A DNA stretch of 64,000 nucleotides from Bacteroidota bacterium (GCA_023957335.1 JAMLHC010000002.1:179441-243440); one strand, 5' to 3'. Shown: positions 2-15,044, numbered from the stretch's first letter. The notes: a model not told the origin generated them from the sequence alone. Numbers and translations are program-made.

Positions 2-3000
2 GAGTTTTTCTATGATTTGAAACCTGATAATGAAATGATGAAAAAACTCATTATGGCAGGGAATGTTAAGGAAGCAGGTTATCATTTTATTATCAAAGCA
101 GGAAAAGAAGTTGGAGTAGGTGATACCACTTGGATAGAATTAAGGGGTTGGAATACTTGTATGCCTTTGTTTGATTTGGAAGCAAGAGATTTTGTTGGAA
201 TGATGGTGCAGGCTTTGCCTAGCGGATTTGGAAACGGATGTGAGTGTTTGACTTGTCCTCAGGTTCAGGAACATGTTGATTCCCTTTTTAAAGAATATCC
301 TGATTTGCAATATAATCATCCAAATTATGCTAGTGTGTTGACTACATTCTTGAATAAACACTTGAATACAAATCTGAGTTTTGCTGAATACCAAACTTTT
401 ATGGAGGGTTGTGGGATGTTTAGTAGAATTGATTTACGTTCTAGTACTTGTGATTACAGAATTAGTGTTGCTTCTGGGTCGGATTGTGTAGCGCATTTGG
501 ACACTCAGTTACGGCATTTGTATGTTCAAACTTCTGAAGCATTGATGTATAGCAAAACAAAGGTGAGTGCAGACAGTATTGTCTATTGCATTGACTTGAG
601 TATGTTTGATGCTACAGGAAGGTTGTGGGCTGCCGATACATTGGAAATGATTTTAGCAGAAACAGGAAATTGCAGTGGAGCAAATAATCAGGAGGATTTT
701 GTGGGTACTTTTAGTAGGTTGTTAATCTTGACACAAACTGAACCAGCCTGCGATGGTAGAACACTGTCGGAAGTAGTGACTAACCAATCCTATAGTGACA
801 GTATTTCAATAACTTCGTATTATAGTCTAGAATGGCTTAATTATTTGAATGATAAAGATACTGGATATTATTACCAGTGGAATCATGCAGAGTTGAGTTT
901 TGCTAAGAGAGCTGATTTTGCGGATACTCTACAAGTGTGGGCATTGGCTTGTGATGATGTGCAGGAATTAGTGTTTCCTTTCCACAAGAGTGGTTATGCA
1001 GAAGGGTTTGCAGAATATGGAATTTGTAGAATTGTGGAAGAAGATACTTTCTGTAATGACTGTGAAGAGATAAGGCATGAATTAATAAAGTACCAATATG
1101 CTTTAGGAACACCATCGAATGAAAGCCCATTAAGGTATTGGACAAGTAAAGATATACGAAAAGTTTTAAAGGATAGCTTGAATGCTGACTATAGGGTTGT
1201 ATTTGAGAATGATGGTTGTCAAAATTGCCCTGATAAGAAGTTGTTTGTTTGTGAGCAATTGAGCGAGGGTGGAAATGCTTTTGCAACACTTCTAAATAAC
1301 TTATTAGCAGATGGGAATCTTTTTGAAAATCATGACTTGACATCAGATACGGCATTGTTGCGAAAGATGAATTTTACTGGAGCATTTAATAGTCCACAAT
1401 TACTGTTTAGTTCTAATATGTCTATTGATACTATTGGAGAATCTCCTGGGTGGGTTTTTGATACATTAGCTAGTTTATGGAATCTACAAATTAAGTTTAA
1501 CCAAAAAACCACTTTGAAGTTTAGTATTGTACTTGAAGGAGATGGAACTAGTTTTAGTGATATTAAAAGAATATTAAGTCTTAAACCTAAGGCAAATAAC
1601 GGTGAAGTATATAGTTTTGAGCTGGTATTATTAACAGAAAACGATGTTTTAAATGCCATTGGAGAAAGCAATGGTTTGGTGATGAGCAATTGTTGTGAAT
1701 ATAGAGAGTTGTTGTTGTGCCCAAAAACTATGAGCAGAGAAGGTTTGTACCCTGTTGCTAAACCTTGCAAAGCTGATGAAATTGCCAATGCTTGGGAACA
1801 GTCTGGAATTATGTACTTACAATATAAAGATTCCTTGCGCAGAGATTTTAAGAATAAGTATGTGGAACACTGTCTGAACAATGCTAGTGAAAATGCATTG
1901 ATGAAATACCGTGAACAACAGTATCATTATACTCTCTATCATTATGATTTGGCGGGCAACCTTATTAAAACTGTACCTCCAGGGGGTGTTGAATATTTGG
2001 ATATGAATGCATTGAGAACGGATAGTATTGCAGATGCCAGAGATGATTATGATAAGGATTTGCATGTTTTCACTAAACACGGATTGGCAAGTTTGTATGA
2101 GTACAACAGTTTGAACCAACCTGTGTGGCAAGCCACTCCTGATGGGGGTGTAAGTAAGTTTTGGTATGACCGTTTGGGCAGGTTGGTGGTGAGCCAAAAT
2201 GCAAAGCAGAAGCTGTTAGGCGATGTGTATAGCTATACTGTGTATGACAGTCTAGGCAGAATTAGAGAGGTGGGTGAAATAACGGGAGATGCGATAAATG
2301 AAGTGAGTTTGCGAGCGGAAGACGGATATGAGGAGTATTATATGGGGTGGGTTGATGCAGGCTTAAAAACCCAGATTACGCGCACTTGGTATGATGCACC
2401 CATGAGCGAAGATATTGATGATGCGTTTGGAGTGGCAGGACAACAGTATTTGAGAAATAGGGTGAGCAGTACAGCTTATTTTGAATATGCTCCTACAGGT
2501 GAATGGGAAACTGAGTTTACTCGCGCTACTCACTACAGCTATGATATTCATGGAAATGTGCATACATTAATTCAGGATTTGCCAGAGTTGGCAAGTGTGG
2601 GTCATAGGTTTAAGTATGTGAGGTATGACTATGATTTGGTAAGTGGGAATGTGAAGCGAGTGAGGTATCAAGAGAATGCAGGCGATGCTTTTTACCACCG
2701 CTATGAATATGATGCAGACAATCGTCTTGTGTTGACAGAAACGAGTTTGGATGAACGTATTTGGGATAGGGATGCAGAGTATGAGTACTATTTGCATGGA
2801 CCATTAGCGAGGGTGTTGATTGGAGAAAAAATGGTTCAAGGGGTGGATTATGCTTATTCGCTACATGGTTGGTTGAAAGGTGTGAACTCTGTGAGTTTGA
2901 ATGCGAATAGGGATATGGGAAGAGATGGTGTAAGTGGAGGAAGAAGGTATGTTGCACGGGATGCGTTTGGCTTTGCGTTGAACTATTACTATGATGCAAA

Positions 3001-5992
3001 TAGTGAGGCAGACTATGAAGCAATTGCACCAGGTGCGAACTGGAATGGAGGAAGGTTGGAAACACAACTGACAAGCGGAGCTAACCAACTTTTTAATGGA
3101 AACATAAACAGTATGGTTACAAGTGTTACTCCATTTATGGAAGGTGGACCGATGGCAACGGTGTATAGGTACGATCAGTTGAACAGGATTAAGGGGATGA
3201 AAACCTACAGGAATTTTAATCAAAGTACGAATGTGTGGAACAGTGGAGGGACGAGCAATTTCTTTGCTACAAACTATAGTTATGATGCAAATGGAAATAT
3301 ACTTTCTTTGAACAGGAACAGTGGTGATGGAAGCAAACTGGGAATGGATGCGTTGACGTATCATTACAAGGCAGGAACAAATCAGTTGGAGTATGTGGAC
3401 GATGCGGTGACTGCGGGAGAACATGAGAATGATGTGGATGATCAGGAAGAAGATAATTATGTGTATGATGCAATTGGAAACTTGGTGCAAGATGTGGCAG
3501 AAGGGATTGAAGCAATTGAGTGGAATGTGTATGGAAAAGTGCGGAGAATAGTAAGAAGTTCTTCAGCAGTTGACAAACCCGACTTGGAATTTAGGTATGA
3601 CGCGGGAGGTCAACGAGTGGTTAAGATAGTGAAAGATGGAGCCAACGAGATTGACTGGAAGTATCAGTACTATGTGCGAGATGCGCAAGGGAATGTGATG
3701 GCTACTTATGACAAGAAAAGTGTGGTAAGCGGTGATACAAGTGTGTATAGGAAGATTAATGAATGGCTAATAACTAATGAGGGAGGAACTGCATTTGGCG
3801 AGTTTGTGGATGGGGAGTTGAAGGGCGGACAATTTGACGGGGCATTGATTGAAGCTATAGTAGAATGGAGTGAAACGGAGAATGTTCTTAGTGGCTATGA
3901 TGCGTCAGACTTTTGGGGTTGGGATGCAAATATGGCATCTCTTATTATGCAGCAGATTGTTTCGTATGCAAGCCCTCCAACCGAATACGAAGAAGTGTTT
4001 GACCTTGTGTGGAACGGTGGTCTGTTCCTTTCGGTAAACGCTGCCATTGTAAACAGTTGCGGAGTGAGCACTCAGAATATGCTGCAAAACCTGCTTATGT
4101 CTGACATGTTGAACAACCATTTGCTAATGGGCTTATATACCCAAAGCGCAGGTACGTTTATAGCCATGTACAGCTCAATGGGGGGATTGCCTCCTTACAA
4201 CGCTCCGGGAATGATAAACTGGATGTGGATGAACTCCACCAACATAGGGATTGCCACAGAGATACTGAATTTTTACAGCCCAACGCAAATACAAACGGCT
4301 TTGGACGGAATGCCTTATGTGGTGATGAAGGATTTTGCGATAAACAATTTCAGCGATTTTGTGAATACAATAAATCTGTGTATGATTGCTCTTCCGGGTA
4401 ATTTCTGGAGTGGGTTCAGCAACCAGGGCATGCTGCGGGATATTATTATGAATCACAGTGCGGCAGAGTACCTGCTTGCGCTGGCAATGAGCAACGACCC
4501 TGACTTTGTGAAAAATGTGGCGGAGAATTACAGCTACCTTGTGGCGGAGGCGGTGCGCAAGCTGGACGGCATGAGCGTGGACGCCTACCTTGCCTTGGTG
4601 AGAAACCACTACGGAGACGGAGTGCTGGCGGATTTGCTTGCCGCTTTGAGCGAAGACCTTATCTTTACGCAAAAGTTTGTGCTGGATGAGCACCACCTGT
4701 ACGGCAGTAGCCGTTTGGGCGTGAAAACCCACAGGAGGGTGCTGCTGCGCAAGGAGTTTAGTATTAGTGGATTTGAGGAAGATGGCACTTATATTACGGA
4801 TGAGGTGACAGATTCGCTTGTTTATGTGGCTTCGAGTGAATACTTTTGTAGGGTGTTGGCACAAAAGCAATATGAGTTGAGTAATCATTTGGGCAATGTT
4901 CTTGCAACAGTGCTTGACCGTAGAACAGGTGTTTTTGATGAGGGAGCTGATACGCTGATGTATTATGTGGCGGATGTTGTGAGTGCTACTTTGTATTATC
5001 CGTTTGGGCAAGCAATGTTGAGTTATTCTAATATTGAATTTGCTTTTACATACGGGTTTAATGGGAAAGAGAAAGATGAAGAAGGAATGGGCGGTGGTGG
5101 TGCGACATATGATTACGGATTTAGAATTTACAATCCTCAAATTGCACGGTTTTTAAGTGTTGACCCACTCAGTTCCTCATTTCCTTGGTACACTCCTTAC
5201 CAATTTGCTGGAAACATGCCAATAATCGCTATTGATTTAGATGGTTTAGAAGAATTTGTAATTATTAGATGGTGGGAAAACGGAAAGTACAAGGGCACAA
5301 CAGTGACATATTTGCCTAACAAAGGGAGTGTGAGATTTTATAGGAACAATCCTCAATATGTTAACCATACAATGTATTTAGATATGGAATACAGTGAAAG
5401 GCAATATAATTTAATGCATGGCGGAAAAATATTTAAAACAATGAAGGTCGGAGATAAAATTTTGATTAGTGCTCTTTCAGACGAAGCGAGATCTATAATA
5501 TACAATACAGATAATAACCAGACAAAACCCAAAGAAGGTTCAATATTGACCCCAACACCTGTTAATGAAAAAGAGAGAATTAAAGCAAATCAACAAAAAG
5601 CTGCATTTAGCCCTGAGAATAATAGGTGGGGTGGAAGCGAGATAACTCCAAAAGTCACTAATTTACATTATAATACTGACAATAGTGACCCACTTGTTCT
5701 ATCGCAGAGTGTTATTGACGGGTTTGCTGCTGCGCTTCTAATTAATCCAGATTATGTAATTAGAATTACTGGGCATACAGACAATGTTGGCACTGATCAA
5801 TATAATAGAGATCTAGGATTAAGAAGAGCAGAAGAAACTAGAGATTATTTAATATCAAAAGGAATATCCCCTGATAGAATTGTAGTTGAAACACAGGGTG
5901 AGTCAAATCCTATAAGTTCAAATGAGACTAGTGAAGGCAGAGCTCAAAACAGAAGAGTAGAAATTAGTATAGAACCCCAAAGATTAAATTAA
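2..5992 (+). CDS. Rhs/YD-repeat family polymorphic toxin, 5' end outside the window; Rhs core ends at DLDGL (5234-5248); the C-terminal tip carries an OmpA-like peptidoglycan-binding domain
   Basis: The frame is open from nt 2; the listed first codon at 17 is TTG and there is no upstream stop. Many YD repeats are present (YHYDLAGNLI, YEYNSLNQPV, WYDRLGRLV, YSYDIHGNV, YDYDLVSGNV, YEYDADNRLV, YRYDQLNRI, YSYDANGNIL, YVYDAIGNLV, FRYDAGGQRV). The Rhs-associated core tail reads YDYGFRIYNPQIARFLSVDPL..PWYTPYQFAGNMPIIAIDLDGLEE. It is followed by ITGHTDNVGTDQYNRDLGLRRAEETRDYL...NRRVEISI, an OmpA C-terminal type motif. Confidence 0.9.
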   Translation, partial: EFFYDLKPDNEMMKKLIMAGNVKEAGYHFIIKAGKEVGVGDTTWIELRGWNTCMPLFDLEARDFVGMMVQALPSGFGNGCECLTCPQVQEHVDSLFKEYPDLQYNHPNYASVLTTFLNKHLNTNLSFAEYQTFMEGCGMFSRIDLRSSTCDYRISVASGSDCVAHLDTQLRHLYVQTSEALMYSKTKVSADSIVYCIDLSMFDATGRLWAADTLEMILAETGNCSGANNQEDFVGTFSRLLILTQTEPACDGRTLSEVVTNQSYSDSISITSYYSLEWLNYLNDKDTGYYYQWNHAELSFAKRADFADTLQVWALACDDVQELVFPFHKSGYAEGFAEYGICRIVEEDTFCNDCEEIRHELIKYQYALGTPSNESPLRYWTSKDIRKVLKDSLNADYRVVFENDGCQNCPDKKLFVCEQLSEGGNAFATLLNNLLADGNLFENHDLTSDTALLRKMNFTGAFNSPQLLFSSNMSIDTIGESPGWVFDTLASLWNLQIKFNQKTTLKFSIVLEGDGTSFSDIKRILSLKPKANNGEVYSFELVLLTENDVLNAIGESNGLVMSNCCEYRELLLCPKTMSREGLYPVAKPCKADEIANAWEQSGIMYLQYKDSLRRDFKNKYVEHCLNNASENALMKYREQQYHYTLYHYDLAGNLIKTVPPGGVEYLDMNALRTDSIADARDDYDKDLHVFTKHGLASLYEYNSLNQPVWQATPDGGVSKFWYDRLGRLVVSQNAKQKLLGDVYSYTVYDSLGRIREVGEITGDAINEVSLRAEDGYEEYYMGWVDAGLKTQITRTWYDAPMSEDIDDAFGVAGQQYLRNRVSSTAYFEYAPTGEWETEFTRATHYSYDIHGNVHTLIQDLPELASVGHRFKYVRYDYDLVSGNVKRVRYQENAGDAFYHRYEYDADNRLVLTETSLDERIWDRDAEYEYYLHGPLARVLIGEKMVQGVDYAYSLHGWLKGVNSVSLNANRDMGRDGVSGGRRYVARDAFGFALNYYYDANSEADYEAIAPGANWNGGRLETQLTSGANQLFNGNINSMVTSVTPFMEGGPMATVYRYDQLNRIKGMKTYRNFNQSTNVWNSGGTSNFFATNYSYDANGNILSLNRNSGDGSKLGMDALTYHYKAGTNQLEYVDDAVTAGEHENDVDDQEEDNYVYDAIGNLVQDVAEGIEAIEWNVYGKVRRIVRSSSAVDKPDLEFRYDAGGQRVVKIVKDGANEIDWKYQYYVRDAQGNVMATYDKKSVVSGDTSVYRKINEWLITNEGGTAFGEFVDGELKGGQFDGALIEAIVEWSETENVLSGYDASDFWGWDANMASLIMQQIVSYASPPTEYEEVFDLVWNGGLFLSVNAAIVNSCGVSTQNMLQNLLMSDMLNNHLLMGLYTQSAGTFIAMYSSMGGLPPYNAPGMINWMWMNSTNIGIATEILNFYSPTQIQTALDGMPYVVMKDFAINNFSDFVNTINLCMIALPGNFWSGFSNQGMLRDIIMNHSAAEYLLALAMSNDPDFVKNVAENYSYLVAEAVRKLDGMSVDAYLALVRNHYGDGVLADLLAALSEDLIFTQKFVLDEHHLYGSSRLGVKTHRRVLLRKEFSISGFEEDGTYITDEVTDSLVYVASSEYFCRVLAQKQYELSNHLGNVLATVLDRRTGVFDEGADTLMYYVADVVSATLYYPFGQAMLSYSNIEFAFTYGFNGKEKDEEGMGGGGATYDYGFRIYNPQIARFLSVDPLSSSFPWYTPYQFAGNMPIIAIDLDGLEEFVIIRWWENGKYKGTTVTYLPNKGSVRFYRNNPQYVNHTMYLDMEYSERQYNLMHGGKIFKTMKVGDKILISALSDEARSIIYNTDNNQTKPKEGSILTPTPVNEKERIKANQQKAAFSPENNRWGGSEITPKVTNLHYNTDNSDPLVLSQSVIDGFAAALLINPDYVIRITGHTDNVGTDQYNRDLGLRRAEETRDYLISKGISPDRIVVETQGESNPISSNETSEGRAQNRRVEISIEPQRLN

Positions 5993-5993
5993 T

Positions 5994-6758
5994 ATGAAAA
6001 TAATACTTGTTTTAACTTCAATTTTTATTTCGTTTTTATTGGGATTTTCATTTCGAAATCACCACTTTAATAAATTAAGCGCTTCTAATTCTGCCAAAAT
6101 GCAAATTTCCAACGTTGATACAAGCAGGTTTGAAAACGTTTTAGAAATGTATGAAGATATATTCTCTGAAAACTTAAGGATAACTGATATCTATATTGAT
6201 AGTTTATTTTGTTACCCAAACATGAGAGACAGTGAAGACATAACATCAGACCCATATATGACTTTAGAAGACTACTTCTATAATAACTGTATCATTGCAT
6301 TAAAAATGGTTAATATTGACAATACTAAAGATATTTTTAGTATTAATAAAAACGGATTCTGTACATTGATAATTGAAAAGAATAAAGAAAAACTAAGGAA
6401 AATAACATATTTAAATAGTGGAATTGAAACAATCGTTAATATAGGAGAATTGGATGAAATAAGTGTGCATAACACTATAAATGGGGATACTGTTGGAAAT
6501 GCCCTATGGATTGATAAAAACTCAAAGCTTACTCGATTATATCAAAACAATTTAGATTCTTTCAGTATAAACTATGTTAAGGTAAATACAACATTTGATA
6601 CAGTGAAAAACAATAGCCCTTTTGTTGAAGTAAATACAACCACAATTGTAACAAATCCTATAAAATATGGCTTTGACTACTTTTTCGATAATAATAATAA
6701 TACTGTTAGAAAAAGAACTCATTTTAATGGCGATTCTATTTCTACTATTCAGAGGTGA
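5994..6758 (+). CDS. putative cognate immunity/partner protein of the resident Rhs tip (imm1), signal-anchored
   Basis: The ATG lies 2 nt after the rhs stop. The N-terminus is hydrophobic (MKIILVLTSIFISFLLGF). The ORF is very AT-rich and shows no enzymatic motif. Function is assigned by position only. Confidence 0.55.
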   Translation: MKIILVLTSIFISFLLGFSFRNHHFNKLSASNSAKMQISNVDTSRFENVLEMYEDIFSENLRITDIYIDSLFCYPNMRDSEDITSDPYMTLEDYFYNNCIIALKMVNIDNTKDIFSINKNGFCTLIIEKNKEKLRKITYLNSGIETIVNIGELDEISVHNTINGDTVGNALWIDKNSKLTRLYQNNLDSFSINYVKVNTTFDTVKNNSPFVEVNTTTIVTNPIKYGFDYFFDNNNNTVRKRTHFNGDSISTIQR

Positions 6759-6766
6759 AGGGGGTA

Positions 6767-6794
6767 GGTAGTGTTGTAGATGTGTTGATTTTAC
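6767..6794 (+). repeat. G/T-rich cassette-junction motif, type 1 (GGTAGTGTTGTAGATGTGTTGATTTTAC)
   Basis: 26 of 28 nt are identical to 8701-8728. It shares the 14-nt core GGTAGTGTTGTAGA with 6805-6818 and with the reverse complement of 12158-12171. Confidence 0.8.
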
Positions 6795-6801
6795 ATTTTA
6801 A

Positions 6802-6821
6802 CAAGGTAGTGTTGTAGATTT
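6802..6821 (+). repeat. G/T-rich cassette-junction motif, type 2 (CAAGGTAGTGTTGTAGATTT); left arm of a perfect 20-bp inverted repeat
   Basis: Its exact reverse complement, AAATCTACAACACTACCTTG, is at 12155-12174. Confidence 0.85.
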
Positions 6822-6892
6822 GGTGTTTTGAGAAAAACCAGAACTTAACCTACTAAAAACCAAAGAAAAGTATCTTTCAGCAATAACAAAAA

Positions 6893-6918
6893 AGCGGATA
6901 TAAAGTCCGCTCATTTTT
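6893..6918 (+). terminator. Rho-independent terminator after imm1
   Basis: The stem is AGCGGA / TCCGCT with loop TATAAAG, followed by CATTTTT. Confidence 0.6.
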
Positions 6919-6946
6919 CTAATAAAATCATTTAAGAAAAACTTTT

Positions 6947-7012
6947 TATCTTCGCTCTACCAAACATGAGAAATTACCATCAAAATACCGCCAGTTTTTA
7001 CAACCCGTTTGG
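6947..7012 (+). repeat. conserved class-A orphan leader plus first codons (TATCTTCG..ATG..SFYNPFG); inverted partner at 11923-11988
   Basis: Hand alignment against the reverse complement of 11923-11988 gives 55 of 66 identical positions. It contains TATCTTCG, one mismatch from the Bacteroidota -7 box TAnnTTTG, 11 nt upstream of the ATG. Confidence 0.75.
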
Positions 7013-8036
7013 TAGTAGTATGATGGGGTATTCTAATGAGGAATTTGCTTACTCCTATGACTTTAATGGTAAAGAGACAGACGATGAAACAGGATTGCAG
7101 GATTATGGAATGCGTATTTATAATAAAGCTTATGGTAAGTTTTTGAGCGTTGACCCTTTGACATCATCGTATCCTTGGTACACACCTTATCAGTTTGCAG
7201 GAAATAAACCGATTAGATATATTGATTTGGATGGTTTAGAGGAATATGATGTTATAATTTGGCTGGGAGCTGACGGAGTATATAGAACAAGAATGCACTT
7301 AATTAATGAAGAAGGGCCTTTGAAAGTAAATTATTATGCAAGAAAATTAGCACACACAGAACCAATGGACGGTCTTCCTGGGAAACCACCTTGTCCTGAT
7401 TGCGCACCGCAAAAGAAGCAATCTACAGATGAACTTATAGTCTCAAAAACTGTAGGTGAAAATGGTGTCACTGAGAATAATATTTGGGCGACTGATAAAA
7501 TGAAAAATCATACAGAAGGGGCTAATAGCGCAGCTAATCAATCTATTAACAATGGAGTAGTATTTTCAGACCCGGGTTTTAATGGAACAATAGTTACATC
7601 AATTCAAGTTAGACGCACTCTAAATACAATAGAAACACCAATTATTAAAAGATCTACTTGGGAAGAAAAAGGAGGTGGTACCTTTAGAAATGCAACAGAT
7701 AGTGAGATTAATAGTTTCTTTAATAATAATACACTTATGGATAAAGCTTTGAAAAAGGTTAATACTTACAAGAATCCCACAGTATATGTTGCAACAGAAG
7801 AACACTTGGTCGCACTTAAAAAACGAAATGATGAACTCGGATTAAATATCAAAATTGAAGTAAATCCTGCAAAGTTAACCCCGTCATTTACTAATGTAAC
7901 AAGTTATTATTTTGCTTTCGAATATGAAGAGGGAACTACAACTAGTACTACCACCACCACTACAACTACCACCACCACGGCTACAGTAACAGAAGAAGGA
8001 GTAACAAATAACACACCAACAACTAGAACAAGATGA
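6966..8036 (+). CDS. orphan Rhs C-terminal toxin cassette, class A (A1): short Rhs core tail plus unknown toxin domain with a poly-Thr tail
   Basis: The ORF opens MRNYHQNTASFYNPFGSSMMGYSNEEFAYSYDFNGKETDDE..YGMRIYNKAYGKFLSVDPLTSSYPWYTPYQFAGNKPIRYIDLDGLEE. This parallels residues of the resident Rhs core tail. About 260 aa with no motif I recognise follow, ending in TTTSTTTTTTTTTTTAT. Confidence 0.75.
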   Translation: MRNYHQNTASFYNPFGSSMMGYSNEEFAYSYDFNGKETDDETGLQDYGMRIYNKAYGKFLSVDPLTSSYPWYTPYQFAGNKPIRYIDLDGLEEYDVIIWLGADGVYRTRMHLINEEGPLKVNYYARKLAHTEPMDGLPGKPPCPDCAPQKKQSTDELIVSKTVGENGVTENNIWATDKMKNHTEGANSAANQSINNGVVFSDPGFNGTIVTSIQVRRTLNTIETPIIKRSTWEEKGGGTFRNATDSEINSFFNNNTLMDKALKKVNTYKNPTVYVATEEHLVALKKRNDELGLNIKIEVNPAKLTPSFTNVTSYYFAFEYEEGTTTSTTTTTTTTTTTATVTEEGVTNNTPTTRTR

Positions 8037-8713
8037 AAATGAAACTTATTATATTGTTTGGACTTGCGATTTGCAATTTAAACTGTCAAGGTTCTTTAGT
8101 ACAATCTATTTCAAAAGATACTAATAAAGAAGATAAATTAATATTTTACCATGCTGATTGGGCTGAGTTTGTCTTAATAATTGTGAAAAAATCACCTGTT
8201 TTAGACACTGAAATTCCTTTATCATGCAGAAATGGCAAAAGCAATAAAAGGCTCATAAATGAAGACAAAGGAGATACTACTTTTTTTTATGTATCTGAAC
8301 ATAAATTATCCTTTAAAGAAAGGGATATTCTTTTTAAAGATAGCTTGATTCAATTTAAGGGATATAGATTTGTTGATTTAAAAGAAATTGACACAGGTAT
8401 TATATCAGATAAACACAGGATGAGTGTTACCTGTTTTGAATGTATATTAGACACAATCTATGACTCTACATTTAAACTCAATTTTCAAGGCAACCACTAT
8501 GAAACTTATTTTTTAGAAAATATAGAATGTATATTTAAATCAAATGAAAGGTTTTTTATGTCAAGTTATCCAATTCAAAATTATTATCAAATACCTCTTT
8601 CAATTGGTTACTTACTTAATGTTGGATTATTCACAGGTTTGGTTTCTGTATCTGATGAAGAAGGGTTTTTTATAGATTGGAGCGAGTTGTCATGGAATTT
8701 GGTAGTGTTGTAG
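8033..8713 (+). CDS. putative immunity lipoprotein for A1 (imm2)
   Basis: ATGA start/stop overlap with A1. The signal peptide has a Cys (MKMKLIILFGLAICNLNCQG). Function is assigned by position only. Confidence 0.55.
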   Translation: MKMKLIILFGLAICNLNCQGSLVQSISKDTNKEDKLIFYHADWAEFVLIIVKKSPVLDTEIPLSCRNGKSNKRLINEDKGDTTFFYVSEHKLSFKERDILFKDSLIQFKGYRFVDLKEIDTGIISDKHRMSVTCFECILDTIYDSTFKLNFQGNHYETYFLENIECIFKSNERFFMSSYPIQNYYQIPLSIGYLLNVGLFTGLVSVSDEEGFFIDWSELSWNLVVL

Positions 8714-8728
8714 AGTTGTTGATTTTAC
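8701..8728 (+). repeat. G/T-rich cassette-junction motif, type 1 (GGTAGTGTTGTAGAGTTGTTGATTTTAC)
   Basis: 26 of 28 nt match 6767-6794. It contains the imm2 stop codon (TAG 8711-8713). It ends 5 nt before the stop of the first minus-strand gene. Confidence 0.8.
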
Positions 8729-8733
8729 CTTAC

Positions 8734-9291
8734 TCACCATTTATGAAAATAAGAATCAATTTGTTTTTTTGTTTTTATTATTCTCATCCCATTTATTCCT
8801 CCATAAAAACGAATATTTGGAATGCTGTCTAACTTTCCTCTTTTAAAATAATAGTAATCATTTGGAACAGTATCTTTATATTTACTTTCTATCCGCATTT
8901 TAGAATTTACTGAATCCTTGCTCATTTCAAATACATTGTCGTTATATATAAGACAAACATAAATCCATTCAGATGCAGTTTGATGAGTTTGAATAAAACA
9001 AAAAGTATCATTATTCTTTAATAAAACAGTATCTAAATCGGAAGTTTCTAAAGCATGATTTAAGACTTTGCTAAACTTACTAATTTCGTTTTTTTCTTGT
9101 TTTCTATTACTAAAAAAGTATCTTAGTCCTTTCCTTTTGGGTGAGATAGAACGAATATGCTTTTTGAAAATATTAATTGAAACATCTAATATGTCCCCTT
9201 CTTTTTTTTTCTCATTAATTTGTGAAGATGTAAGAGAAAAAAAACTTAAAGTCAATATTGTAATTAAGTAAAAAAAAAGTTTTTTAATCAT
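8734..9291 (-). CDS. putative immunity protein for B1 (imm3), secreted
   Basis: The longest ORF runs to 9345. The ATG at 9291 gives a typical signal peptide (MIKKLFFYLITILTLSFFSLTSSQ) and overlaps the B1 stop by only 8 nt. Confidence 0.5.
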   Translation of the reverse strand: MIKKLFFYLITILTLSFFSLTSSQINEKKKEGDILDVSINIFKKHIRSISPKRKGLRYFFSNRKQEKNEISKFSKVLNHALETSDLDTVLLKNNDTFCFIQTHQTASEWIYVCLIYNDNVFEMSKDSVNSKMRIESKYKDTVPNDYYYFKRGKLDSIPNIRFYGGINGMRIIKTKKQIDSYFHKW

Positions 9292-10357
9292 ATTTAAAAG
9301 GTGATTGAGAATGATAATTAACCCAAATAAATTCTTGAAATTCACTACCCATAGGAGAGTAATCTAGTAATCCATTATATCCAGGATTAACAATTTGAAT
9401 TAATGTGGTTGTATGTACATCAAAAGTAGAATAGCTACCTGTTGAAGTTTTTTGAACTAATTGACCTTTATAATTTCCTAGCTTATCTTTATCTAAACTA
9501 TAATGGGTTCTTAATGGGTAACCATGCTCCAGTCTAATTTGATTTTCAACATGAACTGCAAATACTTCTGAATATGGTATGGTCTCACTATTATATCCTT
9601 CTGTGGAATACCATATTTTATCTGGGTTAAGTCCGAAAACATTTTGTGATTTATTGTAATGATAATCCCAAGCATGCCCGAGTTCATGTCCTAGTACTAA
9701 AAAAGGATCCATTGGTGTATTTACAAAATCATCTCCTTTTGCTACAGGTACATTAACTACCACATTAGGATTCCACCCGACTGTTTTAGCATCTACATTA
9801 TAGTAATTTCTTCTTCCATTTTTACTCTGTCTCGTTATTAGTAATGAACTTTCCATTGAGTGTAAATCATCAATCATCATTTTACCTATTGGGCCAGTAT
9901 ATAACCTATTTAATGCCTGTACAGTTTCGCAAATTACATTATCATTTCCATCATAATCTATTCCTGGGGTATATATGTATGTTCCTGTCTTACTACTTGC
10001 ATCAGGAATTTTTATTGTATCACCCGCCACATCGCTAAACCAAATTGGATTATTCGCAAAGGCAGCATAAACAGAAATACTTGGATTAGGTTTTGGGTCA
10101 ACATTCCACCTCCTACCCAACCTAGCATCATACTGCCAATACTCCGCACTATAAGAATTTCCTTTCCCATAAATCTCATCATCTTTCTCTTGGGTATTCA
10201 TACCGTACGAGTAAGCAAATTCAGAGTTAGAATACCCCATCATACTCATACCGAACGGGTAATACATTACAGCCTCCCCCAACCCCTCCAAAGGAGGGGA
10301 GTATTTCCCCCTTTTGGGGGGATTAAGGGGGGCAGTTATTTGACCGCTTTTTTGCAT
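9284..10357 (-). CDS. orphan Rhs-tip toxin cassette, class B (B1): HExxH zinc-metallopeptidase-like toxin
   Basis: Rhs homology begins at VMYYPFGMSMMGYSNSEFAYSYG (in-frame ATG at 10267). The class-B core terminus is YDARLGRRWNVDPKPNPSISVYAAFANNPIWFSDVAGDT. The toxin part has LVLGHELGHAWDY (HELGH, 9674-9688). The first ~30 codons of the listed ORF run through a GC-rich hairpin element and are probably not coding. Confidence 0.7.
   Translation of the reverse strand: MQKSGQITAPLNPPKRGKYSPPLEGLGEAVMYYPFGMSMMGYSNSEFAYSYGMNTQEKDDEIYGKGNSYSAEYWQYDARLGRRWNVDPKPNPSISVYAAFANNPIWFSDVAGDTIKIPDASSKTGTYIYTPGIDYDGNDNVICETVQALNRLYTGPIGKMMIDDLHSMESSLLITRQSKNGRRNYYNVDAKTVGWNPNVVVNVPVAKGDDFVNTPMDPFLVLGHELGHAWDYHYNKSQNVFGLNPDKIWYSTEGYNSETIPYSEVFAVHVENQIRLEHGYPLRTHYSLDKDKLGNYKGQLVQKTSTGSYSTFDVHTTTLIQIVNPGYNGLLDYSPMGSEFQEFIWVNYHSQSPFKYD
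10273..10333. repeat. GC-rich nested-hairpin element (REP/MITE-like) immediately 5' of cassette B1
   Basis: Hairpin 1 is CCCCTCC-AAA-GGAGGGG (10283-10299). Hairpin 2 is CCCCC-TTTT-GGGGG (10307-10320). They are flanked by CCCCC (10276-10280) and GGGGG (10327-10331). The surrounding DNA is AT-rich. Confidence 0.6.
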
Positions 10358-10483
10358 GGTGTTTTCAATGTCAAAAGTAGGGATTTTTTGCCTTGCTTAT
10401 CATAGTAATCTCTTAATCACAAAAAATCACAGTTTAGACACTTCCACAAAACCCCCAATCTGATACATTACCTACATTACCCA

Positions 10484-10975
10484 TTACCATATTTTATGTA
10501 CATTCCTCCAATACAATATCATTGAATCATTATTATTGAATTTAAAGTATGCATTTTTATTACTTACATGTATGTTATACCACACATTTTTCTCGAATCC
10601 AAAACTCAAAGTGTCAGTAATAATATGCTTTCGTGTATCCGTCCACTTGTAATTAGAATTAGTCTTGAAGAAATGTATATATTTTTTCGCTTTATGATTT
10701 TCAGATTTCAGACTAGCAAAACACAATTTTACTATATCATATTTAGCAGGAACTCCTTGAAAACAAAAAGAATCAACACTAAGTTCACAAACTGTAACCC
10801 CTTCTAATTTGCAGTTGCTTTTAATATATTCTCTTGTTATTTCAAATGAGCAACTTTTTGCAAAATAGCCCATGTAAATAAGATAGCATGAACTAAGAGA
10901 GCAACACAAGAAAATTAAAATTATCTTATCTGGTCGCACTATCCTTAGCAACTTTAAGTATTTTTTGTTCTGCAT
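10484..10975 (-). CDS. putative immunity lipoprotein for A2 (imm4)
   Basis: The ORF is open to 11014. Plausible starts are the ATG at 10975 (MQNKKYLKLL..) or the GTG at 10939 (V-RPDKIILIFLCCSLSSC, lipobox-like). It overlaps the end of A2. Confidence 0.5.
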   Translation of the reverse strand: MQNKKYLKLLRIVRPDKIILIFLCCSLSSCYLIYMGYFAKSCSFEITREYIKSNCKLEGVTVCELSVDSFCFQGVPAKYDIVKLCFASLKSENHKAKKYIHFFKTNSNYKWTDTRKHIITDTLSFGFEKNVWYNIHVSNKNAYFKFNNNDSMILYWRNVHKIW

Positions 10976-11969
10976 TTCGTTTAAATTCATATCCTTTTCC
11001 TTTATAACTATCAATTGTTACTCTTGGGTCTAGCATATCCTTAGGATTGTTCTTATCTAATCCTAGTTTTTCCATTTCACTGATTTTCCATTCTTTGTAT
11101 CTTACTAACATGCCGAAAAACATGCTTGCAGTATACGCAGAATTAACAGCTTCGTCACTTGCAGGTCTTCCTGTTATATTATCAATTCCTCTTTTATGTC
11201 TTTGTTCTGTAACTCTATTATAGTAAGCATCCCAGCCTTCTATTGCTGCTTTATCACCCGGTAAAGTCCTTACATCTTCTAACCAACAAAAAGTTCCAAG
11301 GTCTTCTTGGTCGCGGTCGTGTGTGTATGCGATAGCATCAACTTCATCAATTGGGTTTATAGACCAGTCATAGCTGTTATAGGCTTGTACATCTTTATGA
11401 GGTCCAAAAATTGTTTTTGCCCCCTCGCCTTGAAAGAACCCATGTCTTCCTATAGCACTTATACTAAGTCCTCCTCCTTGAGCTATCTCCATTTCCTCAA
11501 CTTCATCATATATTTCACCATTTGCATTTTCAAATTGATAGATATATTTTACTCCCCTACCTTCGGGTCCAAAACTTTCCGAATACTTTTCATAATTAAA
11601 TCCTTCGATATCTCTGTAATCACACACGTCTATTATTACTGGAGCATTCCCATCAATTATTTTCACAGTATATGTAATATATTCTGCACCTTCCAAGTCG
11701 ATTCCGTCAATAGGTCTATTTCCTGCATATTGATAAGGTGTCCACCAAGGGAACTTGCCAGCTTTAGGGTCACGTGACTTGAATCTAATAATTCTAGGGT
11801 CATAATCCCTATATTCAAAAGCATAAGAATTTCCATCTCCTGCTATTTCGCTATCCATATATTGTCCACCGAACCCATAAGCATAGCTAAACTCCGCGTT
11901 GCTGTAAGCTTGCAGGGTGCTTCCGAACGGGTTGTAAAAACTGGTAGTATTTTGGCGTTGTTTTCTCAT
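10926..11969 (-). CDS. orphan Rhs C-terminal toxin cassette, class A (A2): Rhs core tail plus unknown toxin domain
   Basis: The ORF opens MRKQRQNTTSFYNPFGSTLQAYSNAEFSYAYGFGG..YRDYDPRIIRFKSRDPKAGKFPWWTPYQYAGNRPIDGIDLEGAE. About 250 aa follow, containing NPIDEVDAIAYTHDRDQ. Confidence 0.75.
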   Translation of the reverse strand: MRKQRQNTTSFYNPFGSTLQAYSNAEFSYAYGFGGQYMDSEIAGDGNSYAFEYRDYDPRIIRFKSRDPKAGKFPWWTPYQYAGNRPIDGIDLEGAEYITYTVKIIDGNAPVIIDVCDYRDIEGFNYEKYSESFGPEGRGVKYIYQFENANGEIYDEVEEMEIAQGGGLSISAIGRHGFFQGEGAKTIFGPHKDVQAYNSYDWSINPIDEVDAIAYTHDRDQEDLGTFCWLEDVRTLPGDKAAIEGWDAYYNRVTEQRHKRGIDNITGRPASDEAVNSAYTASMFFGMLVRYKEWKISEMEKLGLDKNNPKDMLDPRVTIDSYKGKGYEFKRNAEQKILKVAKDSATR

Positions 11970-11988
11970 GTTTTGTAAGGCGAAGATA
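11923..11988 (-). repeat. conserved class-A orphan leader plus first codons; inverted partner of 6947-7012
   Basis: 55 of 66 positions are identical to 6947-7012 after reverse complementing. It includes TATCTTCG, the ATG, and the block TTTTTACAACCCGTT. Confidence 0.75.
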
Positions 11989-12098
11989 TGGATTTATTTA
12001 GAAAGGCTCAATACAAGTTATTTCGGATGTTTTTTCTAAGAAAATGAGGGAGGTCGCAGGGGTTGTTATTCAAACCCTGATTTTTTGACACCAAGCAC

Positions 12099-12124
12099 AA
12101 AAAAAGCCCCGAACTGGCAGGGCT
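12099..12124 (-). terminator. Rho-independent terminator after imm5 (minus strand)
   Basis: On the minus strand the stem is AGCCC / GGGCT with a 10-nt loop, followed by a run of six T. On the plus strand it is followed by TAAAAA, so it is strand-specific. Confidence 0.55.
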
Positions 12125-12154
12125 TAAAAATATATTGATGTGTAATCTTTCCTA

Positions 12155-12174
12155 AAATCTACAACACTACCTTG
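12155..12174 (-). repeat. G/T-rich cassette-junction motif, type 2; right arm of the perfect 20-bp inverted repeat
   Basis: AAATCTACAACACTACCTTG is the exact reverse complement of 6802-6821. It spans the imm5 stop codon (12167-12169). Confidence 0.85.
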
Positions 12175-12997
12175 AAATTATCTGACATGCTTTGAATTCT
12201 ACAACATCAATTAAATGATAGTTAATATCCTTATTGTCAATGCCATAGTATTTTTTCTTATCATCGAAATATGAACTATCATAATTTATAAATTTCAGAA
12301 CATAAATACTGTCTTTAAAATAAATCAATATGGTGTTATTTTTAACGACTTCTGCTTTTAAGTATGATACCCATTGAGCATAATTTTTTGTATATACTAC
12401 ATCGTGATAGTTTTCTTCAATTACGTACTCACATGTAGCATTAAGATATTCATCTAAATAATATTCAAGAGTTGAAATTGAATCAATTAACTTTATTTCA
12501 CTGTAATTACGCATAACTTCGTTATGTCCTCGCATATATGAAAATAAGATGTCCTTTGATAACTTAATACTTTCGTTTGTAGGCAAATTCAGGTAATTTA
12601 TAATTTTCTCAATTTCTCTTGTTGCAAAAGAAAAACGAATGTTTTCAGAGCCACCAAATAAAGTAATATCAAAGTCGTTTTTGTAATACAATTCAGATAT
12701 ATCAGAGTCGAAATACAACATATTTGCTGAAAATATTGAAATATAATTCCAATTACTGTCCAATGCAATAAACAGGTTCGCAAAATAGCTATGACGAACA
12801 GTATCTGACATTTCAATAATTTTTAATTTGTCGTTGAACATGATAAGTGTGTCTGTCGGTGTAAATCTACTGACATACAAGCTGCAATAATCAGGTACTA
12901 CAATTTTTGATTCTTCTGAGACATGTTTAACCTTTTCGACACATGAAACCATGTTGAAACCAAGCACATAAATCAGTACGCAAATTTGAGTTTTCAT
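12167..12997 (-). CDS. putative immunity lipoprotein for B2 (imm5)
   Basis: It starts 12 nt after the B2 stop. The signal peptide has a Cys (MKTQICVLIYVLGFNMVSC). Function is assigned by position only. Confidence 0.55.
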   Translation of the reverse strand: MKTQICVLIYVLGFNMVSCVEKVKHVSEESKIVVPDYCSLYVSRFTPTDTLIMFNDKLKIIEMSDTVRHSYFANLFIALDSNWNYISIFSANMLYFDSDISELYYKNDFDITLFGGSENIRFSFATREIEKIINYLNLPTNESIKLSKDILFSYMRGHNEVMRNYSEIKLIDSISTLEYYLDEYLNATCEYVIEENYHDVVYTKNYAQWVSYLKAEVVKNNTILIYFKDSIYVLKFINYDSSYFDDKKKYYGIDNKDINYHLIDVVEFKACQIISR

Positions 12998-13009
12998 GAA
13001 GTTAAATTA

Positions 13010-13975
13010 TCAGTTCTGGTGCTTATAAATATTGATTGGTTCTGTTTTATACCTAAGTAAGTAAGCACTAAAATAATATTGATGAAAACCAATAAATAAA
13101 TACTTGTCCTTAATGTCCTTATATTTTGGGTCTTTACTTTTTCGCAAATCTGCATAAGACTTTGGCAATCCCTTTTCATAAGAACTTAAAAACCTTTCAG
13201 AACCTGATAACATTAAATTTTGTCCAACTTTAGACTCAACGGTATGGTCATCTCTATTTATTAACAGGCATTTATTATCAAGACCCCAATTGAACTTAAT
13301 TGCTTTTAGATAGCCATGCCCCGTTTCATGAACTATCGAATTAGACATGACAAGCGTTGAATTGTTTTTCATTGCTTCTGTAAATTCACTATAATAAATA
13401 ACACTTCTATTACTGAAATTCACGCCCCTCACTCCATGAGAATAAAAACTTTCAAAAGAAATATAGTGGTCTGTTTCGTTGAGTTTGATTTGGTCAAATG
13501 TCAAAGTTGTTTCTTCTACTACAACATTAAGATTATTATCCCTGTACATCAGCTCTAAATCCTTAAATAGTCGGTTTTTATAAGCATCAAAATTTTTATT
13601 CATCTGCTCTTCTGTCCAACCTTTATCTTTGTTTGCTTCCGAATATCCCTTTTTCAGTTCTATAGTATTTACAAAAACAGTTGTATCCCCCGCCACATCA
13701 GTAAACCAAATCGGATTATTCCCAAAACAAGCATAAACACTAACACTTGGATTTGGTTTTGGGTCGTTGTTCCAACGCCTTCCCAGTCTGCTGTCATACA
13801 TCCAGTATTCCGCACTGTATGCACCTTCAAAGATTTCATCATCTTTGAGTTGTCCGTTTTGTCCGAAGGAATATGAGAACTCCGCGTTGCTATAACTCAT
13901 CATAGAGCTTCCGAACGGATAATAAAGAAATCCGCTTTGAGCCTTAGGTAGATATGATGTTAGAGGATGCATCAA
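13010..13975 (-). CDS. orphan Rhs-tip toxin cassette, class B (B2): HExxH zinc-metallopeptidase-like toxin
   Basis: The Rhs homology reads GFLYYPFGSSMMSYSNAEFSYSFGQNG..YDSRLGRRWNNDPKPNPSVSVYACFGNNPIWFTDVAGDT. The toxin part has SIVHETGHGYL (HETGH, 13316-13330). The listed start is a TTG inside the 3' end of the integrase gene, so a genuine independent start is doubtful. Confidence 0.7.
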   Translation of the reverse strand: MMHPLTSYLPKAQSGFLYYPFGSSMMSYSNAEFSYSFGQNGQLKDDEIFEGAYSAEYWMYDSRLGRRWNNDPKPNPSVSVYACFGNNPIWFTDVAGDTTVFVNTIELKKGYSEANKDKGWTEEQMNKNFDAYKNRLFKDLELMYRDNNLNVVVEETTLTFDQIKLNETDHYISFESFYSHGVRGVNFSNRSVIYYSEFTEAMKNNSTLVMSNSIVHETGHGYLKAIKFNWGLDNKCLLINRDDHTVESKVGQNLMLSGSERFLSSYEKGLPKSYADLRKSKDPKYKDIKDKYLFIGFHQYYFSAYLLRYKTEPINIYKHQN

Positions 13976-15044
13976 TTGTCTGTTTATCTGACAAAATTAA
14001 CATTTTTTGCGCAAATTTATCATGTATTTTTGATAATTCTTCGTCCATATAACTTTGGCTATGCTCCACATATTTATAAAACTCTTTTGAACCTGGCGCA
14101 TGACCACTTATCTTCCTAACCAAATTTTCTTCTAGCCCTAACCTTAACAATGTTGTTACAGTTGTTCTTCGCATACAATGGCTAGAAATCAAATCACAAT
14201 AGCGGTAATGCTTTCTATTATTTCGTTTAATCTCAAATGGCTTACCTCTTCTCATTCTTATTTTTGGAACTTCGTGTGTCCAACCTGCTTGTTCTGTCAA
14301 CAGCTTTATATTCAAATTAAACAGGCTGAGTGCAGGGAAGGGAAATAGGGTTTTGCGTTTTTTATCTCTGTATTTCTCAATAATTTCTATTGCATAATCT
14401 GGAAGCATGATTCTTGTTAGGGTTTGTGTCTTTTGTGATAGGTTTACAATGTAATAACGATTACCAATTATTTCTAAATTATGGCTAGTTAACCTCTTTA
14501 AATCCGAATACCTTAACCCAACAGTACACCCAAACACAAAAAGATCCTTTGTCAAGCTCAGAGACATAGGTAAGCTTGATTCAAATTCTTTTGAATGAAT
14601 CAGGTAGTTCAACATTTCGGGTTCCAACACAATGATTGGAATGGCTTCGTTTGACACATAAAACTTTTTAAAGTATTGCCCTATAATCATACCCATATCT
14701 ATAGAAAGCCAATTTAAAAAAGCTTTTAGCAACTTAATATTCTGACCCACATAGTTGTCTGTATAGCCTTGTTTGTTGTACAAGAAGTCAGTAAATGAGG
14801 TATAGAATGATTGCCAATACTTCTGTACTTTTTTCTTTTCCCGTTCATTTGCCTTGCTTACTTCATAAACAAAAAGCTCAAACCCAGAATGGGCTACAAA
14901 CTTCTGTAATACCCTAGAAAGCATTTCATAGTTTAGATTTGTACTGGCAACTATGGAAGCACCATTGGTTTTTCTTCTTCTCTTAATTTGGTTGTGCCTA
15001 ATAAATTTTACTAATAGAGGCAACATTGCGTGTTCTTTAATCAT
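13944..15044 (-). CDS. tyrosine-type site-specific recombinase/integrase
   Basis: The C-terminal catalytic domain pattern is present: GLRYSDLKRL (Arg), SSHCMRRTTVT (HxxR), ISGHAPGS (His), EFYKYV (Tyr). The N-terminal part resembles Bacteroidota phage-integrase SAM-like domains. Confidence 0.85.
   Translation of the reverse strand: MIKEHAMLPLLVKFIRHNQIKRRRKTNGASIVASTNLNYEMLSRVLQKFVAHSGFELFVYEVSKANEREKKKVQKYWQSFYTSFTDFLYNKQGYTDNYVGQNIKLLKAFLNWLSIDMGMIIGQYFKKFYVSNEAIPIIVLEPEMLNYLIHSKEFESSLPMSLSLTKDLFVFGCTVGLRYSDLKRLTSHNLEIIGNRYYIVNLSQKTQTLTRIMLPDYAIEIIEKYRDKKRKTLFPFPALSLFNLNIKLLTEQAGWTHEVPKIRMRRGKPFEIKRNNRKHYRYCDLISSHCMRRTTVTTLLRLGLEENLVRKISGHAPGSKEFYKYVEHSQSYMDEELSKIHDKFAQKMLILSDKQTIDASSNIIST

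Follow-up and report, generated by a model that had tools for sequence, protein, structure and literature searches.

A candidate shufflon for Rhs toxin tips in environmental Bacteroidota

Known switching systems and the locus under study

In the R64/IncI shufflon, a constant N-terminal body encoded by pilV is joined to alternative C-terminal segments that lie in both orientations, with short, partly conserved sfx sites at the segment heads and the gene of a tyrosine recombinase, Rci, adjacent to them. The sfx sites are asymmetric, and this asymmetry restricts Rci to inversion. The subject of the present work is a locus of similar design built around a polymorphic toxin gene, rhs, in a 64,000-nt stretch of DNA of a Bacteroidota bacterium (GCA_023957335.1, JAMLHC010000002.1:179441-243440), which is called the window below. 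The locus comprises the 3' part of a full-length rhs gene, whose 5' end lies outside, cut off by the window edge, four Rhs orphan cassettes (A1, A2, B1, and B2), small putative immunity genes, and a tyrosine recombinase gene (Table 1). In our opinion, held with a probability of about 0.72, this is a multiple-inversion system, i.e., a shufflon, for the C-terminal toxin of the Rhs protein. The functionally closest known system is the R64 pilV shufflon. Unlike in R64, however, it is a polymorphic toxin that is targeted, and every segment comes with an immunity gene; the recombinase is not of the Rci type, matching only the generic family PF00589; and the hosts carry the system on environmental Bacteroidota chromosomes and not on enterobacterial plasmids.

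Inversions that alter genes have been surveyed by Milman et al. (2023; PMC9881135), who give 11,955 predictions. Examples of such inversions are SusC/SusD of B. fragilis (with an invertase of the Tsr0667 family), hsdS/PsrA-CreX, PglX, and phage tail fibres. In these systems, as in the window, a gene and its partial copies form inverted repeats by a recombinase gene, and inversion alters the C-terminal part of the product; the SusC/SusD shufflons of B. fragilis, moreover, belong to the same phylum. Rhs and toxin genes are not named as targets in the main text of that survey, and the recombinase described here has no NCBIfam match to a named invertase family.

Silent core-end/toxin/immunity cassettes are also found downstream of full-length toxin genes in enterobacterial rhs loci and in the contact-dependent inhibition (CDI) and MafB systems, where, as here, they constitute a reservoir for toxin replacement. 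These classical orphans lie in direct orientation, contain a variable length of core, act through homologous deletion or duplication, and have no dedicated recombinase. The orphans of the window, in contrast, are mostly inverted (three of four), begin at a fixed point (the homology edge is at -12 from a conserved F codon in 95 pairs; see below), and are linked to a recombinase gene.

Two further comparisons are pertinent. The rAID-1 elements (Ross et al. 2019, bioRxiv 10.1101/471110; PMC12247911), described from gut Bacteroidales only, are the closest antagonism loci associated with a recombinase. They are low-G+C arrays headed by an XerD-like recombinase, with repeats between units and co-oriented orphan immunity genes that have no full-length toxin gene as a partner, and have been read as integron-like. 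They are defined by a recombinase at least 44% identical to BF9343_RS08045 and by at least two co-directional downstream genes with a G+C content of no more than 41%; downstream of the recombinase of the window there are six co-directional open reading frames (ORFs), and the G+C content of the array is 25–40%. The units of the window differ from those of rAID-1 in that they are toxin-immunity pairs headed by an Rhs core, with a convergent full-length rhs included in the array, and the relatives belong to Chitinophagales, Flavobacteriales, Cytophagales, and Sphingobacteriales. It should be noted that the two systems are compared here by their organisation. Integrons (IntI, attI/attC) likewise combine a tyrosine recombinase with an array of exchangeable cassettes, the content of which varies by strain. 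Unlike in integrons, the site in the window is coding, in frame, and located at the 5' end of the cassette, whereas attC is a folded site at the 3' end; instead of depending on a Pc promoter, the cassettes become joined to a resident gene; both orientations occur; and no IntI model matches the recombinase. Zhang et al. (2012) recorded XerC/D genes beside polyimmunity loci, with inversion not mentioned in the text. A search of full-text literature found no description of recombinase- or inversion-driven Rhs switching; most subscription journals lay outside this search, and an earlier description is possible. The swapping of Rhs tips by a recombinase at a fixed site would apparently be an undescribed way for bacteria to change weapons.

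Site, junctions, and array orientation

ORF listing and translation reproduced the gene coordinates and the two convergent arrays of the original prediction, including the tail-to-tail junction of the arrays, a gap of 20 nt, and the inverted position of three of the four orphans relative to the main gene. The RHS repeat-associated core (TIGR03696) is complete, from model position 1, in the main gene and in all four orphans; the C-terminal regions that follow the core differ among the five, and a small ORF follows each orphan. The short conserved segment that had been attributed to the partial copies does exist: the five core ends have in common about 270 nt of coding homology, with a DNA identity of just 74–83%. 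The part of it relevant for recombination is narrower, namely, a 14-nt site at the 5' edge of the homology.

This site, TAY-WAY-CCG-TTY-GG, encodes Y-Y/N-P-F-G. The corresponding pattern, TAYWAYCCGTTYGG, occurs five times in the 64 kb, where none would be expected; all occurrences are at cassette heads (plus strand, two; minus strand, three), and each is in frame with the downstream cassette. Multiple in-frame sites at cassette heads, in both orientations, are also present in about 60 related loci, and the cross-species consensus reads (G)AT TAY TAT CCN TTY GG. Dyad symmetry of the site is limited to a weak resemblance, AT-NNN-YAT / ATG-NNN-AT, that may reflect G-M-x-M codons.

The position of the homology edge was determined by anchoring 114 cassettes on the F codon and comparing 95 within-locus pairs. 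Pair identity stays at the random level of about 0.3 up to position -13, is 0.7–1.0 from -12 on, and then decays, with the peak at -3 to +4, third positions of the P and F codons included. The information content in 93 orphans is about zero upstream of -12 and substantial over the leader-side bases AT TAY TAT CC. The absence of these leader-side bases from the expressed protein points to conservation at the DNA level.

The leaders, i.e., the sequences 5' of the site, show no relationship to the Rhs body. A short leader containing an ATG is common to A1 and A2; that of B2 consists of the 19 nt between the recombinase stop codon and the site. This stop codon (13944–13946) does lie within the B2 ORF, as had been noted; the TTG start assigned to that ORF is probably not real. 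The leader of B1 (10290–10345, minus strand) contains nested G+C-rich hairpins, CCCCCAAAAGGGGG and CTCCCCTCCTTTGGAGGGG, directly upstream of the site and translates as '...PPKRGKYSPPLEGLGEA'. Since it resembles a repetitive extragenic palindrome (REP) or a terminator, the ATG start of the B1 ORF is probably spurious as well. In another locus (L086; loci are numbered in this way throughout), the B1 leader precedes a different cassette.

The second line of evidence comes from strains of the same species. An identical recombinase protein is encoded on 18 public contigs, 11 of which were inspected. In a stretch of up to 11 kb that takes in the fabG/tatC side as well as the recombinase and its leader, these 11 contigs are 98–99% identical to the window at the nucleotide level, and every one of them loses colinearity right after ...TATTATCC(G/C)TT(C/T)GG, beyond which at least nine different cassettes are found. 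In GCA_039810705.1, the recombinase leader is joined at the site to the A1 cassette, which thus occupies the recombinase-proximal address on the minus strand; this copy agrees with A1 of the window at every base of the first ~96 nt past the GG, and over 130 nt the identity is 97%. A1 of the window occupies the opposite strand at a distance of 7 kb, and one inversion between the A1 and B2 sites would yield just such a junction. In DRR784974, the B1 leader is followed by a different cassette with the breakpoint unchanged, and the A1 cassette was found behind four different leaders. At the third position of the P and F codons, the base goes with the leader in some cases and with the cassette in others, from which we infer that the crossover takes place within CCNTTYGG. 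An exact-pattern scan of JGI metagenome contigs for the recombinase leader gave no matches, so the window species is evidently absent from that collection.

The third line of evidence is the linkage and orientation observed across the phylum. The recombinase has about 1270 database relatives. A profile scan with one genome per species yielded 271 matches, and the best 80 (79 loci; 41–54% identical) were kept; among these best 80 of the 271 are representatives of Chitinophagaceae, Ferruginibacter, Flavobacteriales, Cytophagales, and Sphingobacteriaceae, and no Bacteroidales genome. Cassettes were sought in the six-frame translations of the 79 loci with a hidden Markov model (HMM) built from the five core ends of the window. 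In 53 of the 61 loci with sufficient flank, an Rhs core-end cassette lies at most 700 nt from the recombinase, and 14 further contigs stop inside a cassette start, which brings the linkage to at least 67 of the 79 relatives. Four loci have ample flank on both sides and no cassette.

Proceeding outward from the recombinase, a block of cassettes pointing away from it is followed by a block pointing toward it in 55 of 59 arrays, and full-length rhs points toward the recombinase in 22 of 22 loci. This V shape is common to the layouts in which the recombinase is co-directional with or divergent from its array; these layouts form largely separate clades of the tree. In the divergent layout, which is that of about half of the clades, the site lies 106–163 nt upstream of the recombinase start. 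Inversions between opposed sites preserve the V shape, because a segment that spans the convergence point swaps its direct and inverted parts; neither homologous recombination between direct repeats nor insertion of the integron type predicts such a rule. The commonest array is minimal and consists of rhs, its immunity gene, an inverted second immunity gene, an inverted orphan, and the recombinase. A Ferruginibacter assembly made with Oxford Nanopore Technologies (ONT) data (L032) has this two-state form, with one perfect 78-bp inverted repeat flanking 2954 nt and the recombinase gene about 120 nt beyond the repeat. Among related loci, the exact inverted repeat across the site measures 21 bp in the median and 98 bp at the longest.

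Contig ends form the fourth line of evidence. The metagenomic contig L097 (4656 nt) and its reverse complement both start with CCGTTTGG; the contig runs from one site across four immunity genes to a second, inverted site, and its ends have just 10 nt in common, which is too short for a repeat-caused break of short-k-mer assembly. L002 stops at the GG of the site and L098 starts at the next base; L090–L094 stop 4–23 nt past the site; and contigs of three unrelated species (L038, L010, and L056) stop 0–6 nt past it. Breaks at the site signify at least two alternative partners in the samples, i.e., coexisting orientations or coexisting strains. One candidate, L096, was not counted, as both of its ends are within a 29–30-nt inverted repeat in the core that is itself able to break short-k-mer assembly.

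The linkage, the orientation rule, the fixed site, the strain junctions with one cassette at opposed addresses, and the contig ends lend support, indirect but of several independent kinds, to the shufflon-like exchange of tips envisaged in the original prediction. In the mechanism that we propose, a single full-length rhs would be expressed, while a silent cassette would provide the end of the Rhs shell (Rhs_assc_core, ~80 residues) together with another toxin domain and its cognate immunity gene; the expressed gene and all cassettes have the same in-frame site at the first codons of the core domain. The recombinase would pair a site of the direct block (rhs or A1) with an opposed site of the inverted block (B1, A2, or B2), and the DNA between the paired sites would be inverted. 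The constant Rhs body would then be fused in frame to a new core end and toxin, followed by its immunity gene, whereas the earlier tip would be parked as an inverted orphan and the array would stay V-shaped. Presumably, it is the recombinase that catalyses the exchange, and the exchange is inversion within clonal populations; the immunity genes of silent cassettes are probably expressed, and the same sites probably also permit occasional gain and loss of cassettes.

The recombinase and competing explanations

The recombinase matches PF00589 just over the threshold, and its weak similarity to phage integrases extends to phrog_216 and phrog_1. NCBIfam holds no specific family for it, the best hit being a sub-threshold XerA/integron-integrase match of 22 bits against a cutoff of 220. 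Membership in the Rci-type, Tsr0667-type, or integron-integrase family models was not found in NCBIfam or Pfam, and a profile search of the PDB gave no sequence match. The catalytic R-K-H-R-H-Y set of tyrosine recombinases (R178, K205, H289, R292, H315, and Y325) is invariant across 28 diverse members. An AlphaFold model with a predicted local distance difference test score (pLDDT) of 89.9 matches XerA, XerH, Cre, Tn1549 integrase, and lambda integrase with a probability of 1.0; the identity in the alignments with these proteins and with IntI is 10–16%. The enzyme is a tyrosine recombinase with two domains that is plausibly capable of catalysis and forms a separate clade.

Some of the above could be produced by capture alone, an explanation that we regard as unlikely. 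An integron-like or rAID-like enzyme would insert and excise circular cassettes at the recombinase-proximal site and thereby maintain a store of immunity genes and spare toxins; inversion would be no part of its function, and the convergent rhs would tap the store through rare accidents. The recombinase-proximal cassette is indeed the most variable position among strains, with at least nine variants; the 3'-end element GGTAGTGTTGTAGA is common to cassettes; and the recombinase-headed, co-directional, low-G+C rAID-1 arrays of Bacteroidales have been described as integron-like. However, capture explains neither why full-length rhs faces the recombinase-proximal block in 22 of 22 loci, nor the in-frame site in the expressed gene, nor the occurrence of one cassette at addresses of opposed orientation. 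In about half of the clades, moreover, the recombinase is divergent from the array and not at its head, and integron-integrase models are unmatched. The exchange could alternatively be due to RecA-dependent homologous recombination between Rhs core ends, as in enterobacterial rhs orphans, with the recombinase a mere passenger. The activation of orphans by homologous recombination is reported as established in Salmonella (PMC3967940), and the cassettes have about 270 nt of homology in common; nevertheless, in the window this homology is merely 74–83% identical, the breakpoints, instead of being dispersed over it, coincide at a few bases of its 5' edge in all strains and all species, and the tight, conserved linkage of the recombinase is left unexplained, all of which makes this route improbable.

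It is least probable, and in our view very improbable indeed, that the gene encodes an integrase belonging to a mobile element or prophage inserted here, with rhs orphans inside or beside it by chance. The weak matches to phage integrase families (PF00589, phrog_216, and phrog_1) and the low G+C content of the array would suit such an origin. Yet genes of fabG and tatC type start about 500 nt from the recombinase, and this flank is colinear in 11 of the 11 inspected contigs; a tRNA search near the locus and a search for direct repeats resembling attachment (att) sites were both empty; other mobile-element genes are absent; and no strain with an empty site and a duplicated att was seen. The recombinase has two weak matches in 2.9 million viral contigs, compared with 271 matches in genomes. 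Thus, the absence of a nearby tRNA gene, the colinear flanks, and the near absence of relatives from viral contigs speak against a separate integrative element with att repeats, the counter-case considered in the original prediction.

Several observations weigh against a shufflon or limit its scope. In the window, the exact inverted matches across the site are only 5–19 bp long, and the site of rhs has TTT where the inverted sites have TTC, inside the presumed overlap; this mismatch and the shortness of the matches suggest that the window strain may switch rarely. The evidence consists of assemblies, in which contig breaks could reflect strain mixtures. At least nine cassette types exceed the five of the window, so that gain and loss of cassettes, presumably horizontal, must also occur. 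A search for A1 homologues recovered the toxin only as the 356-aa orphan and not in fusion with full-length Rhs. The arrays also retain directly repeated sites, with no deletion between them, and a bias toward inversion must therefore be presupposed. Finally, recombinase homologues without an adjacent Rhs cassette are found in L005, L018, L021, L024, L066, and L104.

The surroundings of some of these homologues deserve a description of their own. In P0004 (L005 and L006; recombinases 69% identical), the gene is beside a convergent 748-aa ORF and a gene for a protein of more than 2300 aa without a Pfam match. In P0070 (L104), it lies upstream of a gene for a Laminin_G_3 protein and of small ORFs on both strands. 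The contexts of L005, L006, and L104 contain no Rhs cassette and no informative Pfam match and are unexplained exceptions; the recombinase clade may serve other variable gene families too.

The shufflon could also be part of a broader picture, which we offer as a tentative and rather doubtful extension. According to it, the uncharacterised recombinase clade, widespread in environmental Bacteroidota, would run a hybrid of shufflon and integron, which reversibly switches Rhs tips and immunity by inversion at a coding 14-bp site and uses these sites also for taking up or dropping cassettes; the rAID-1 arrays of gut Bacteroidales, with their immunity genes only, might be degenerate descendants of such systems.

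Other features and biological meaning

Table 1. Features of the rhs–recombinase locus (positions counted from the first nucleotide of the window)
Feature	Position	Strand	Basis or remark
Full-length rhs, 3' part (1991 codons)	17..5992	+	ORF listing, translation; RHS repeats, Rhs_assc_core, and C-terminal region
Site in rhs, TATTATCCGTTTGG, codons Y-Y-P-F-G	4994..5007	+	first residue of Rhs_assc_core
OmpA-like domain ending the rhs C-terminal region	~5705..5953	+	family match
imm1, putative immunity gene for the resident C-terminal toxin region	5994..6758	+	assigned by position
3'-end element GGTAGTGTTGTAGA.., two copies	6767..6797, 6805..6835	+	downstream of imm1
Terminator-like hairpin, predicted to insulate A1 from the rhs-imm1 operon	6893..6911	+	hairpin prediction
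Orphan A1: Rhs_assc_core and C-terminal region of unknown type	6966..8036	+	direct orientation
Site of A1, TACAACCCGTTTGG	6999..7012	+	pattern scan
imm2	8033..8713	+	3'-end element 8701..8731 overlaps stop codon
Gap between the convergent direct and inverted blocks, 20 nt	8714..8733	.	ORF listing
imm3, 185 aa from ATG	8734..9291	-	likelier than the longer ORF 8734..9345
Orphan B1: Rhs_assc_core and Peptidase_M91 toxin domain	9284..10357	-	inverted; family match
Site of B1, TATTACCCGTTCGG	10264..10251	-	pattern scan
imm4	10484..11014	-	ORF; start codon uncertain
Orphan A2	10926..11969	-	inverted; leader homologous to A1 leader
Site of A2, TACAACCCGTTCGG	11936..11923	-	pattern scan
Terminator-like hairpin, imm5/A2 interval	12104..12125	-	hairpin prediction
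imm5	12167..12997	-	3'-end element 12171..12158 overlaps stop codon
Orphan B2	13010..13975	-	inverted; closest cassette to the recombinase
Site of B2, TATTATCCGTTCGG	13924..13911	-	begins 19 nt past the recombinase stop codon
Tyrosine recombinase	13944..15044	-	PF00589; own Bacteroidota clade

The counterpart of the truncated rhs in the sister assembly GCA_019638055.1 encodes 3705 aa. The resident Rhs tip ends with an OmpA-like peptidoglycan-binding domain, which is odd for a 'toxin' tip; OmpA domains recur in many orphan-size Rhs-core proteins of metagenomes that were collected in the homologue search with A1. A family search with imm1 gave no match. Near the C-terminus of A1 (~7950–8010, plus strand), 11 threonines in a row are encoded inside the Thr-rich stretch TTSTTTTTTTTTTTATVTEEG, just 5' of the overlapping start of imm2. 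A promoter scan with the sigma-70 consensus, which is unsuited to Bacteroidota, gave 51 matches compared with 46.7 in shuffled sequences.

The element GGTAGTGTTGTAGA(T/G)..TTGATTTTAC is a conserved mark of cassette 3' ends: it is present twice after imm1 and over the stop codons of imm2 and imm5, has TAG in two reading frames, and recurs as a degenerate copy near 10480–10445 (minus strand). It was found in assemblies of the same species only. Cassette acquisition may make use of the element as a 3' boundary.

In L087/L088 (12856–13221, minus strand), which belong to the window species, a one-cassette array is followed by a convergent gene for an HTH_3-type regulator that is absent from the array of the window. 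Some genomes have several recombinase-plus-cassette systems (L026 is among the loci noted): L039 has two recombinase genes 7.5 kb apart, with a cassette after each, and one RIFCSPLOWO2 Bacteroidetes metagenome-assembled genome (MEPB01 contigs L047, L067, and L074) has at least three loci. In L015, L058, and L059, all of divergent layout, the contigs also stop 70–570 nt past the 3' end of the recombinase, on the cassette-free side, which hints at another repeated or variable element there.

One enzyme, a conserved core of 14 bp, and cultured hosts make the shufflon hypothesis directly testable; cultured carriers of the system are Limnovirga soli KCS-6 and Xanthocytophaga flavus NT2B1. A new tool for in-frame protein shuffling could also be derived from the enzyme.

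Orphan toxin-immunity cassettes are ubiquitous in polymorphic toxin systems, and their use is largely unknown beyond a few enterobacterial cases. If the shufflon reading is true, the assembly breaks at the site would be explained, a large clade of unannotated Bacteroidota 'integrases' would gain a function, and the recombinase-associated immunity arrays (rAID-1) would have a plausible origin. Programmed inversions that alter genes would be extended to interbacterial weapons, and the switching of toxins would be a programmed, population-level form of bet-hedging and not a rare accident.

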